A stretch of DNA of 64,000 nucleotides from Microbacterium sp. (GTDB taxonomy: Bacteria; Actinomycetota; Actinomycetes; Actinomycetales; Microbacteriaceae), in the NCBI GenBank assembly GCA_031555515.1, contig JAVBUG010000158.1, forward strand, positions 1,591-65,590. Direction: 5' to 3'. Under the pieces are notes generated by a model. The model did no database searches and had not been told where the DNA came from. It saw only the letters and a list, made by a program, of their open reading frames with translations. This document shows positions 38,203 through 43,661 of the stretch, piece by piece (the stretch's first letter is position 1; each line of letters begins with the position of its first letter). Made by a program: the position numbers and the translations under genes.

Positions 38203-38233
38203 GAGCACGCAGCATCCGTCCTGATACACGGAT
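38203..38233 (-). promoter_or_regulatory. Putative ECF promoter, copy 2 (ATCCGTGTATCA-N15-GCTC)
   Basis: Same 12-mer and same spacing to GCTC as the element upstream of the sigma gene. Confidence 0.6.
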
Positions 38234-38245
38234 CGCGAAGAAATC

Positions 38246-40732
38246 TCAGAAACCGGCGCCGTGCACCTGGAACGGGGCCACGATGCCGGTTTGGACGGAT
38301 GCTGCAGCCAGCGCCTCGGAGGGCCCGACGCCCGCCGCGAGCCCCTCGTGCATCGCGCCCAGCAGCTCGCATGCGTCGTCATCGGCGACGATCACCGGCG
38401 CGGCGATCACCGCGCGGGCGCCGGCGTGCAGCCACACGCGCGTCATGCCGATCGCCTCTTCTCCCCAGCGGACCGAGGACCGTCCGACCTCGCAGGCCGA
38501 CAGCACGACGGTGTCGGGCACCTTCTCGATGAGATCGATGTCGTAGCCGAACAGCGTGCCGTCGGCGAGTTCCAGGCCCGAGAACATCGGGTTGTCGACC
38601 GCGTGCCGGCCGTGCGCGGCGACGTGCAGGACGTCGACCTCGGAGGCGAGGCGGGTGGTTGAGGCGATGTCGGCGTCCGACAGCACGACGGGCGTCGCCC
38701 AGGCTCCGGCCGCGGTGACGACCTCCTCCCGTCCGCGCGGCACACGGGGGCCGACGGCGAATCCCGCCGCAGCGGGCGGGGCGGCGGCGACCCGCCGGAA
38801 TCCCTGCCAGCGCGAAACCGACGCCGCGAGCGTGAAGGCGCGGCCTCGCAGGGCGGGAAGCATCGCCCACGGGATGCCGCTGAGCACCCCGGGTGCGGTG
38901 AGGACGATCCGCCGCGAGCCGACGAAGCGGAGCACCGGGTCGAACAGCGTGCGCGACAATGCCGCGAGCCTCTCATCGAGCGATCGCTGCACCATGGGAC
39001 GGAACCCGGAGCCGAGCGGCCTCGACGCCGACATATCGAGGTCTGCGCGCAGACCCCCCATCAGCTCCCGCACCGGCCGCCAGTCACCGAGGTGGACGAG
39101 ACGCGCATCATCCGCGCTGATGACGACGGCCGCGAGGCGGTCGCCGGTGTAGATGAAGGCGAGGATCGCGGCGTCCGCTCCCAGCTCGCTCCGCGCTTCC
39201 TCGATCCCCACCCGGCGGAGCACGGCAGCGGCTCCGGTCGACGACCACTGACGCTCACGCGCCCGGCTCTGCAGCTCCTCCGCGCGAGGGCCCGTGAGCC
39301 CTTCACCCTCGCCCTGTTCGGCGCGCAGCATCCGGAGCTCCGCGAGATCTTCCGCGAGGGCCGCATCCGGCGGTGGACGCAGCGGCGCGACCTGGAAGCT
39401 CAGGTGTCTTGCGCGCTCCGACCAGTCGAAGACCACATCGGGCCGGCCCGAGTGCACCGCGGCCGCCAGACCCGCCCGGATCAGGCCGTCGCCGTGCATC
39501 GTCAGCGAGGTCTGCAGATCGAGGCTTCCGAAATCGCGCTGCCAGTCGAAGAGCGCGTCGAGGCCGGATGCTGCGTGCCGCCGTGCGTCGGCGTGCCGGC
39601 CACGCGCCTCCGCCTTGGCGGCGAGCACCTCGTGCTCGAGCACGCGCACCTCCATCGTCGCTGTCGGCGGGATCCGCACGCGGCGTCCGTCCGGCCGGCC
39701 GTGGCGCGCCTCCCACAGCTGGCGTGCCAGGCGGAGAGCGGCACCCTCGGTACGGAAGCCGTGCCGTTCCAGCGCGCCCGCGACGCCGTCGACCTCTTCC
39801 TCCGACGGCACGCGACGCGGCGGCGCGGCGCGTACCCCGTTGCGCAGCACCTGTCCTCCGGCGAGCTCTGCACGCATCGCGAGGGCCTCCGCCCGAGACC
39901 CCCAGGTGTCGTTGCTGAAGCCCCGGAAGTGGCGGGCCGCCGCGCGCGCGACGCGGCGCGCTCGTGCGGGATCGTGGGAGAGGAGCGAGCGGGCGAGCTG
40001 GAATTCCGCCTCGGCGCGCTCCTTCGGCATCCGGGTCTCGCCGAACGTCGTGGCCGCGCTCGCGAGGAGGACTTCCGCCTCGCGGGTGAGGCCGGCCTCG
40101 CGCAGCACCGTGGCCCGATCGAGATCGCCGATCGCCGCGTTCCCTCGCGAGACGCCCGAGATGGTGATGCGCGCCGCGGTCATCTCGCTCAGTGCGGAAA
40201 CGATGTCGCCCCGCAGCAGGTCGATGTATCCGAGGTTGTGCCGGGCTTCCGCGGCATCCACCGGACGCTCGGCGTCGGCGAAGATGGCGGCAGCCGACGA
40301 GGTGTCGTCGGCAGCCCGGTCGAGGTCGCGACGCTGCATCCCGATGAGCCCTCGATTGATCAGCATGTTCGCCCGGGCGATCGGATCGTCCGTCGTGTCG
40401 ATCGCGCGGCTGAGCCACGTATCGGCGTCGTCGAGCCGACCGCCGAACTCTGCGATCGCCCCCATCTGCCCTTCCAGGATCGCGATCGTCTGACGCGAGA
40501 GCCCGTCGGTGTTCAGCGCGTCCAGACAGAGCCGCTCGGCCTCGACGATGTCGCCGGTACGCGCGCGGATCACGGCGAGTGTGCCGGCGATCCGCGCGAG
40601 CAGGTCGGGGTCTTCGGTCAGTGCCCGGGCGCGCGCCAGGGCACGCTCAGCGGCCGCGAGCCTCCCCTGAGTGGCCCGATCGACCGCCTCGCGGTGCAAC
40701 GCCGCCGCGGAAGTCCCCATCGCACTCATCAT
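38246..40732 (-). CDS. TPR + CHAT (caspase-like) protease
   Basis: N-terminal TPR-like helices (ARHNLGYIDL); catalytic His LHVAAHGRH and Cys VVLSACEVG; start may be 40720. Confidence 0.9.
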   Translation of the reverse strand: MMSAMGTSAAALHREAVDRATQGRLAAAERALARARALTEDPDLLARIAGTLAVIRARTGDIVEAERLCLDALNTDGLSRQTIAILEGQMGAIAEFGGRLDDADTWLSRAIDTTDDPIARANMLINRGLIGMQRRDLDRAADDTSSAAAIFADAERPVDAAEARHNLGYIDLLRGDIVSALSEMTAARITISGVSRGNAAIGDLDRATVLREAGLTREAEVLLASAATTFGETRMPKERAEAEFQLARSLLSHDPARARRVARAAARHFRGFSNDTWGSRAEALAMRAELAGGQVLRNGVRAAPPRRVPSEEEVDGVAGALERHGFRTEGAALRLARQLWEARHGRPDGRRVRIPPTATMEVRVLEHEVLAAKAEARGRHADARRHAASGLDALFDWQRDFGSLDLQTSLTMHGDGLIRAGLAAAVHSGRPDVVFDWSERARHLSFQVAPLRPPPDAALAEDLAELRMLRAEQGEGEGLTGPRAEELQSRARERQWSSTGAAAVLRRVGIEEARSELGADAAILAFIYTGDRLAAVVISADDARLVHLGDWRPVRELMGGLRADLDMSASRPLGSGFRPMVQRSLDERLAALSRTLFDPVLRFVGSRRIVLTAPGVLSGIPWAMLPALRGRAFTLAASVSRWQGFRRVAAAPPAAAGFAVGPRVPRGREEVVTAAGAWATPVVLSDADIASTTRLASEVDVLHVAAHGRHAVDNPMFSGLELADGTLFGYDIDLIEKVPDTVVLSACEVGRSSVRWGEEAIGMTRVWLHAGARAVIAAPVIVADDDACELLGAMHEGLAAGVGPSEALAAASVQTGIVAPFQVHGAGF

Positions 40733-40760
40733 GCCGTGCGGGACGATGGAGGGCGAGAGG

Positions 40761-42528: not shown

Positions 42529-42996
42529 TCAGACTTCGAACTGCGGGGTCTGGAAGTCGCGCAGCGCCCCGTCGGCGTCGCGCACCACCAGGCGAAGCCG
42601 CGCCACCCCGGGCGTGACCTCGTCGAAGGCGAAGCGTCCGTGCTCGCCCGGTTCGGCCGACCACTCGCGGTCGCCCTGGATCAATCGGATGGCGAGGGCC
42701 GTGGCATCCACCCATCCGTCCACGCGTCGCTCGCCGCCCTCGGTGGCGGTGACGTGCAGCAGGACGCTGGTCGTGCCGTCGCTGAACTGCAGCGTCGCGG
42801 TGTCGGTCTCGCCCCGCACGGCGGCGAACGTCCCCTCGACGAGCGTCAGGAGGGCATACTCCCGCGACAGGTCCTCGACGGCGACCGCGGCGACCATCTG
42901 GTCGACGAGGCCGGCCGGCACGGGGTCGACGTCCTCCCACATGCGGCGCATTCGTGCGAAGAGCGCGGCGTCGGCCGCAAAGTCTTCAGTTTCCAT
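42529..42996 (-). CDS. Putative soluble anti-sigma / sigma partner
   Basis: Overlaps the sigma stop; N-terminal helix (MWEDVDPVPAGL), AVRG, beta-rich C-terminus (RVDGWV, HGRFAFDEVTPG); no TM. Confidence 0.6.
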   Translation of the reverse strand: METEDFAADAALFARMRRMWEDVDPVPAGLVDQMVAAVAVEDLSREYALLTLVEGTFAAVRGETDTATLQFSDGTTSVLLHVTATEGGERRVDGWVDATALAIRLIQGDREWSAEPGEHGRFAFDEVTPGVARLRLVVRDADGALRDFQTPQFEV

Positions 42997-43612
42997 CGTC
43001 GTCACCTCTCCATCCGTCTCCCTCGAGTACGGCGCGTAGCTTCGCGAGGCAGCGCTGGCGGGTCGGTCCGATGGATCCGATGGGCATCGCGAGGTCTTCT
43101 GCGATGCGGGCATAGTCGGGGCGGTCCTCGAACGCGACGATCCGCAGCAGGCGCTGGCATCGTTCGTTGAGCGTGGCCACCGCTGTCCAGAGGCGACGTG
43201 TCTCGTCGTCCTGCGCGGCGGTCTGCTCGGCGGATTCGTGGACCGGAAGGTGCGGTTCGAGCGACTCGGCCTCCGTGGCATCGGCACGCCGATGCTGTTT
43301 GCCGACCCGCCACGCCTCACGGCGCGCGCACATCGTGAGCCATCCCGACACCGCGAGGGGGTCGTTGATGGTCTCGTGACGGCGTACGAGCGTCAGCCAG
43401 GTCGTCTGCACGACGTCCTGCGCCAACGCAGGATCGAGCCCGTACGCCCTCACGACGTGCCATAGCGGCGGCGTCATCAGGCGGACGAGTTCGTCCATCG
43501 CGCGGCTGTCTCCTTCACGCCACCGCACGAAGAGTGCGGCGGCGCGCTCCCATCGCGCCGGCTCCACGGAGTCGACGGATGGTTCGGCGCCAGCCTGCGT
43601 CATAGCGCCCAT
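42986..43612 (-). CDS. ECF RNA polymerase sigma factor
   Basis: Region 2 AQDVVQTTWLTL..WL...ARREAW; region 4 YARIAEDLAMPIGSIGPTRQRCLAKLR; start 43612 or 43603. Confidence 0.9.
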   Translation of the reverse strand: MGAMTQAGAEPSVDSVEPARWERAAALFVRWREGDSRAMDELVRLMTPPLWHVVRAYGLDPALAQDVVQTTWLTLVRRHETINDPLAVSGWLTMCARREAWRVGKQHRRADATEAESLEPHLPVHESAEQTAAQDDETRRLWTAVATLNERCQRLLRIVAFEDRPDYARIAEDLAMPIGSIGPTRQRCLAKLRAVLEGDGWRGDDDGN

Positions 43613-43630
43613 TCTGTCCACACCATGCCC

Positions 43631-43661
43631 GAGCGCGATAGTGCGGGTTTGATACACGGAT
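43631..43661 (-). promoter_or_regulatory. Putative autoregulatory ECF promoter, copy 1 (ATCCGTGTATCA-N15-GCTC)
   Basis: Lies about 20 nt upstream of the sigma start; twin of 38203-38233. Confidence 0.6.

Follow-up and report, generated by a model that had tools for sequence, protein, structure and literature searches.

Two copies of a predicted ECF54-type promoter bracket a sigma factor and protease module in Microbacterium, the second facing a candidate structured RNA

Introduction

ECF54 is a group among the extracytoplasmic function (ECF) sigma factors which is purely actinobacterial (Casas-Pastor et al., bioRxiv 10.1101/2019.12.11.873521, supplementary files 4, 6; PMC7826278). In its gene context, position +1 codes for a carboxypeptidase-regulatory-like protein, +2 or -1 for a subtilase, and +3 or -2 for CHAT and TPR proteins, and an anti-sigma factor is not evident (Casas-Pastor et al., PMC7826278). 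The predicted target promoter of the group is GTATCAG (-35)-Xn-CTCC (-10) (Casas-Pastor et al., bioRxiv 10.1101/2019.12.11.873521), and ECF54 is counted among the sigma factors for which control by proteolysis has been proposed (review, PMC8999054). The group is widespread in actinobacteria and has so far been described by bioinformatics only. The present study concerns a four-gene module of this kind in the genome of a Microbacterium sp. (GenBank assembly GCA_031555515.1), and a short two-box element found at both of its ends. The module lies within a stretch of 64,000 nucleotides (nt) of contig JAVBUG010000158.1 (positions 1,591 to 65,590, forward strand), which is referred to here as the window, and comprises genes for an ECF sigma factor, a partner protein of 155 amino acids (aa), an S8 subtilase and a TPR-CHAT protein. 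The copy of the element before the sigma gene is called copy 1, and the copy after the CHAT gene is called copy 2.

Judged by its gene content and order, the window operon fits the ECF54 context. It shares with the group the gene neighbourhood, the actinobacterial host and the predicted promoter motif, and GTATCAG-Xn-CTCC was found upstream of the sigma gene in the orthologues and, with a deviation at the last base of each box, in the window. The motif was already published as a prediction and is not new. In the portions of the published ECF54 descriptions available to us, the motif is given only upstream of sigma genes; the window module adds a copy after the CHAT gene and an RNA target for it, and those portions make no mention of either. 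Both copies are very probably target promoters of the encoded ECF54-type sigma, in which TGTATCA(G) would be the -35 box and nCTC(C) the -10 box; copy 1 would serve autoregulation and copy 2 a second transcription unit. An ECF promoter of this two-box layout had been proposed in an earlier reading of the letters of the window, referred to here as the original prediction, which overlooked that the motif was already published, that its core is shorter than 12 nt, and that copy 2 faces a conserved RNA.

Results

A two-box element at both ends of the module

The 12-mer TGATACACGGAT is found on the plus strand at 38222-38233 and 43650-43661, and exactly 15 nt separate each occurrence from a GAGC at 38203-38206 and 43631-43634, respectively. 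The two 15-nt spacers are unrelated in sequence. Because the minus strand encodes the whole module, the element is read in the sense of the genes as ATCCGTGTATCA-N15-GCTC. Between the end of copy 1 and the first ATG of the sigma open reading frame (ORF) there are 18 nt, and copy 2 starts 12 nt past the CHAT stop codon. The coordinates, the spacing, the dissimilar spacers and the placement of the copies, one before the sigma gene and the other just after the CHAT stop, are all as the original prediction had them.

With respect to the published ECF54 motif, copy 2 (GTATCAG-N14-GCTCC) is identical in both boxes, and copy 1 (GTATCAA-N14-GCTCG) differs at the last base of each. No match to a sigma-70-type consensus (TTGACA-N16-18-TATAAT-like hexamers) was found in 37950-38300 or in 43550-43760.

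The exact 12-mer occurs twice in the whole 4.1-Mb assembly, both times in the window, where about 0.07 occurrences would be expected for a given 12-mer of such composition (calculated from 70% G+C). With two mismatches allowed, a search of the window found 2 against 1.5 expected. Since this mismatch test is not significant alone, the statistical weight of the element lies in its exactness, its uniqueness in the genome and its conservation in other species.

Conservation of the element across orthologous loci

A search of 150 sampled genomes of the family found sigma orthologues in four of them, and the same four genes were present in all four. For a larger set, one genome per species was scanned with an alignment of the 155-aa protein, which gave 74 loci, or 75 with the window. 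Nearly all of the 74 are from Microbacterium; the remainder come from Frigoribacterium, Humibacter, one Nocardioides metagenome-assembled genome (MAG) and several uncultured Actinomycetota. Of the 75 loci, 65 have the strict pattern GTATC(A/T)-N15-nCTC upstream of the sigma gene, 66 have it just past the CHAT stop, and 59 have it in both positions. Most of the loci which fail this pattern have the same boxes at N16, a spacing also seen in the Nocardioides MAG. Outside these two positions, only a handful of occurrences of the strict pattern were seen in the flanking sequence, about 1 Mb in all. Orthologous sigma genes were where the original prediction would have the motif recur, and most of them carry it.

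The conserved core, on the minus strand, consists of (A/G)TGTATCA(G), 15 (rarely 16) unconserved bases, and nCTC, often extended to CTCCTG. In the orthologous loci, the boxes are always oriented towards the downstream unit, and the distance from CTC to the sigma start codon is 18-23 nt. In locus L114, where the genes are ordered S8-sigma-partner-CHAT, one motif precedes S8 and another follows CHAT. The spacer and the surroundings of the boxes are unconserved, and a comparison of the flanks of the two copies in 64 loci gave no signal of covariation. As the bases upstream do not covary between copies, the 12-nt identity in the window overstates the element, and on these alignments the extra identity of the two window copies, ATCCG, is a clade-level coincidence. 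Of the element as first proposed, a 12-mer plus a second box, the two boxes at fixed spacing stand, but only TGTATCA and nCTC of it are kept across species.

The same boxes could be read as the operator of a different DNA-binding regulator, a repressor or an activator, and not as a promoter of the encoded sigma. In Humibacter the upstream copy overlaps the near-palindrome TGATAC-AC-GTATCA, the sigma leader holds a second highly conserved element, and start sites are unmapped, all of which would suit an operator. This reading is nevertheless very unlikely, because the boxes are unlike each other and form neither a palindrome nor a direct repeat, are strictly directional and at promoter distance from start codons, and travel with the sigma across orders. 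Domain annotation found no conserved DNA-binding regulator in the module, and the neighbouring LysR-like gene has no helix-turn-helix match and is absent from M. paraoxydans-type loci which keep both copies.

Genome-wide scan for the motif

A weight matrix trained on other genomes only was used to scan the genome from which the window comes, with a threshold score of 20 or more. Six sites reached it, among which copy 2 ranked first and copy 1 fifth, and none did in the reversed sequence or in three Markov simulations, so a genome-wide scan also speaks for the motif as first proposed. With the loose pattern GTATCW-N15-GCTC, counts were at background level in five genomes, and real sites can be separated from chance only by the weight matrix or by the stricter T-preceded pattern. 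When the strict pattern was run on G126 and G034, which are complete genomes, it matched the two module copies and one extra site in each. The extra matches lie inside coding sequence and were set aside as chance.

Three more sites in the genome of the window with a score of 20 or more are intergenic and face genes (C275:3127, C137:19059 and C383:250; loci L120-L122). The first gene set faced is a DUF6220-like membrane protein with a multicopper oxidase, the second a 54-aa ORF with an enzyme of the enolase superfamily, and the third an Hsp70-like protein with a STAND-NTPase/LuxR protein behind it. One more match, the fourth, at C305:3027, is inside coding sequence.

Gain and loss of the module

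The module behaves as a block of 5.65 kb which some genomes have and others lack (Table 1). At three empty sites, in genomes G205, G175 and G157, the LysR-like and GATase genes which flank the block are only about 20-45 nt apart, with no motif and no RNA between them. Comparison with these sites puts the borders of the block about 170 nt (~38033) and about 50 nt (~43711) outside the two copies, and none of the three comparisons showed a direct repeat at the borders.

These borders bear on whether the repeats are a target-site duplication, which the original prediction had named as its own alternative, or the terminal repeats of a mobile element carrying the module. Such an origin is suggested by an exact 12-bp direct repeat which brackets a 5.4-kb block that only part of the genomes of the genus possess. 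It has next to no chance of being right: the empty sites refute it, with borders outside both copies, no border repeat and the motif missing altogether, and the match in other species is confined to the two boxes, with no contiguous repeat. Domain annotation found no recombinase gene in the module, and most species carry the module at the same chromosomal site.

Some observations on the surroundings of the module were made in passing. At the right border of the block, TAGACT stands about 7-8 nt before the GATase ATG (window 43712-43730), with TAGAAT in its place at the empty sites; it looks like the -10 box of a leaderless transcript. In M. paraoxydans-type loci (L097-L102), the chromosomal context of the module differs from that in most of the genus. 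In L014:4930-5015 (genome G089) and in L111 (Frigoribacterium), the module adjoins a putative tRNA gene, as judged by eye, and has no copy 2.

Table 1. Features of the ECF54-type module, in window coordinates
Feature	Position	Strand	Details
Gain/loss unit: RNA, copy 2, four genes, copy 1	38033..~43711		Between the stop of the LysR-substrate-domain gene and TAGACT of the GATase gene
Predicted promoter copy 1 (autoregulatory, sigma operon)	43631..43661	-	TGTATCA 43650-43656 as putative -35; 15-nt spacer; GCTC 43631-43634 as putative -10
Leader element GTGTGGACA(G/C)AATG	43610..43623	-	Between the copy 1 -10 box and the sigma start codon
ECF sigma, ECF54 type, 208 aa	42986..43612	-	ATG at 43612, alternative ATG 43603; Pfam Sigma70_r2
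+1 gene, 155-aa protein	42529..42996	-	Three N-terminal helices and C-terminal beta-sandwich
S8 subtilase, cytoplasmic, 564 aa	40761..42455	-	Pfam Peptidase_S8, E 4e-24; PYGTRTN x5 repeat
TPR-CHAT caspase-like protease, 828 aa	38246..40732	-	Pfam CHAT, residues 588-814, E 2e-22
Predicted promoter copy 2	38203..38233	-	TGTATCA 38222-38228 as putative -35; 15-nt spacer; GCTC(CTG) 38203-38206 as putative -10
Structured RNA candidate	38040..38202	-	Inferred start ~38196, inferred end ~38055; covariance model R1, 103 bits
RNA hairpin P1	38159-38177	-	GGGGGG loop
RNA hairpin P2	38107-38149	-	
RNA terminal hairpin P3	38060-38094	-	12 pairs

Genes of the module

The sigma factor matches NCBIfam TIGR02937 (sigma70-ECF) with 63.8 bits over residues 38-194, where the cut-off is 42.9, and is of ECF type, with sigma-2 and sigma-4 as its sole regions. 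A sequence search of the PDB with it gave nothing at E below 1e-5. In its leader, the element GTGTGGACA(G/C)AATG has high information content at +33 to +46 from GTATCA, as measured over 50 non-redundant loci. It is almost invariant across Microbacterium and exceeds the needs of a ribosome-binding site; it may be a ribosome-binding region or the initially transcribed region.

The 155-aa protein encoded at +1 is identified, weakly and by way of its orthologues, as the carboxypeptidase-regulatory-like partner. The window's own copy had no Pfam match, and 13 of 34 orthologues matched PF13620 CarboxypepD_reg (best E 1.8e-4). In its AlphaFold model, the beta-sandwich has a predicted local distance difference test (pLDDT) score of 88-97 and the helices are below 65. 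It is a candidate for an anti-sigma factor or an adaptor, and the anti-sigma role stays at that level because a Foldseek search against the PDB returned generic beta-sandwiches only, with no specific match.

The subtilase is at +2 and the CHAT (TPR) protein at +3 in the window, in the four family orthologues and in most of the distant loci checked. Variants of this order have S8 first (L114 and L117) or lack S8 (L108 and L116). The module proteins differ widely in their conservation. Between the genome of the window and its closest relatives (loci L046-L066), the sigma and the partner are 88-99% identical and the flanking GATase is 80-96% identical. The S8 and CHAT proteins are 39-62% identical to those of the closest relatives and near 50% at any phylogenetic distance; in relatives with a 95-99% identical sigma, the S8 subtilase has 41-62% identity and the TPR-CHAT protein 51-62%. 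Either the protease pair is hypervariable, or it has been swapped by recombination between the conserved ends. When the four module proteins were submitted to PADLOC, no known defence system (CRISPR, CBASS or PADLOC-listed) was found.

A candidate structured RNA behind copy 2

In most species, a convergent gene with a LysR substrate-binding domain only lies 170-190 nt downstream of copy 2, and the stretch between the two is conserved. Alignments of this stretch showed no conserved start codon or reading frame for a small ORF. It does contain a candidate structured RNA of about 145 nt, with three hairpins and G-tract loops (Table 1).

The strongest evidence concerns the terminal hairpin, P3. 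Across 48 species, its pairing is standard in 100% of 575 cells, with compensatory changes in 6 of the 12 pairs; 23 cells are G-U and zero are A-C. For each of five measures, the value observed for P3 was reached in at most 1 of 500 shuffles, and four of the five were also above every slid control. In 35 of 36 species, the fold of the module-sense strand is more stable than that of its complement, by about 11 kcal/mol, and from this and the asymmetry between G-U and A-C the RNA is read in the direction of copy 2. P3 alone was recovered by RNAalifold, both on MAFFT alignments and on a model-based alignment, so P1 and P2 rest on single-sequence folds. Rfam searches with the window and with locus L086 returned chance-level matches only (best E-value 2.7).

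A covariance model found the RNA once in each of the 48 loci, always directly after copy 2. Among 151 sampled genomes of the genus, 87 have the module and 34 have the RNA, and 33 of these 34 carry the module; in the exception, the RNA is at a contig end. Among the matches listed, the RNA shares the strand of the partner gene and follows it downstream at a distance of 4-5 kb (6.5 kb in genome G183). In genome G268, the RNA model matches twice, at C15:156070-156239 and 159114-159286, with 3 kb between the matches, and both are downstream of a single module.

Outside Microbacterium, copy 2 faces other units, each of which could be transcribed: in L115 a gene for a papain-family protease, which has a Shine-Dalgarno sequence of its own, in L112 an ORF of no assigned identity, and, in the MAG locus L113, another sigma-partner pair, placed exactly where copy 2 would be. 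Copy 2 thus marks a conserved second position of the predicted promoter, with variable cargo. The pair in L113 shows that tandem duplication does occur, and copy 2 might on that account be an inactive relic, for example of a tandem duplication of the module, with the RNA region being only the 3' untranslated region and terminator of the operon; the lack of a terminator between CHAT and the RNA would fit such an arrangement. There is only a slim chance of this. Both copy-2 boxes are kept in 66 of the 75 loci, with a spacer and surroundings that diverge, and copy 2 has the top weight-matrix score in its own genome. Copy 2 persists, too, in loci where what follows is a protein gene that has a ribosome-binding site to itself.

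A further observation links the motif and G-tracts. The motif precedes homologous Hsp70-like genes in two genomes (L122:250-360, on the window genome's own contig C383, and L142:1319-1500, in genome G170), and the leaders of both genes have CUGGGG(G/A) tracts which resemble the loops of the small RNA. The Hsp70-like homologues in genomes G168 and G173 are without the motif. A common RNA-binding partner for the small RNA and the Hsp70-like leaders is conceivable.

Discussion

Taken together, the orthologous loci, the weight-matrix scan and the published ECF54 motif support the predicted ECF promoter at both ends of the module, by comparison between species on the one hand and by the literature on the other. 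Copy 1 would drive the four-gene operon of sigma, carboxypeptidase-regulatory-like partner, S8 subtilase and TPR-CHAT protein, and thereby autoregulation. Copy 2 would drive a second transcription unit, which in Microbacterium would be the structured RNA of about 145 nt ending in a strong terminal hairpin. On both, transcription would be expected to depend on the sigma and to start about 6-8 nt after CTC. Release of the sigma is presumed to be proteolytic, after the proposal in the literature for ECF54, and the released sigma would then raise the output of its own operon and turn on the RNA, whose part in the response can so far only be surmised.

Several points weigh against the promoter reading. 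Copy 1 ends in GCTCGGG and not in CTCC, and the boxes are without the AAC (-35) and CGT (-10) signatures common in many ECF groups. The flanks of the copies do not covary across species, and so add no support for a shared reader. Between the CHAT stop and copy 2 a terminator is lacking, and the RNA could therefore also, or only, be the 3' end of the operon transcript. The literature on ECF54 members yielded no transcription-start, expression or binding data, and the published motif is not fully independent of the footprint described here, because it was predicted computationally from upstream regions of the same gene family.

If both copies are indeed target promoters, the second fixed position of the motif provides the first predicted ECF54 target outside the sigma operon. 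The module would then have two parts, a conserved frame (sigma, partner, promoters and RNA) and a hypervariable core of two proteases, and such a core within a conserved frame is a hint of a sensing role for the proteases. It is possible, as a tentative extension, that the ECF54 cassette forms a self-contained sigma switch gated by proteases, with a regulon of little beyond its own operon and an exchangeable output slot after CHAT, and with S8 and CHAT perhaps as fast-evolving sensors, as in conflict or immune systems. The slot, if real, would be taken in Microbacterium by the small RNA with G-tracts, in Nocardioides by a papain-like protease, and elsewhere by a further sigma module. One sigma suffices to test the two short promoters and the one small RNA directly.

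Comparison with known systems

The sigma-E-dependent small RNAs of enterobacteria, MicA, RybB and MicL, are unlinked to rpoE, are Hfq-dependent, and repress the mRNAs of outer-membrane proteins. The predicted arrangement in the window resembles them in that a small non-coding RNA, the RNA arm of a response, is under a promoter of the type read by the ECF sigma itself. It differs in that the window RNA adjoins the sigma operon at its 3' end, carries G-tracts in its loops, has no Rfam match, and belongs to a Gram-positive organism.

Two other systems are similar on the side of the proteases. In Myxococcus xanthus DdvA-DdvS, DdvA is a single transmembrane protein that includes a zinc-binding anti-sigma domain (PMC11506125), and the Craspase system of type III-E CRISPR, Csx29-Csx30-RpoE, is RNA-guided (PMC10028731). 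As in the window, a TPR-CHAT caspase-like protease is in both genetically coupled to an ECF sigma, and proteolytic release of the sigma has been shown or proposed. Unlike in those systems, the CHAT protein of the window is separate and cytoplasmic, and is paired with an S8 subtilase.

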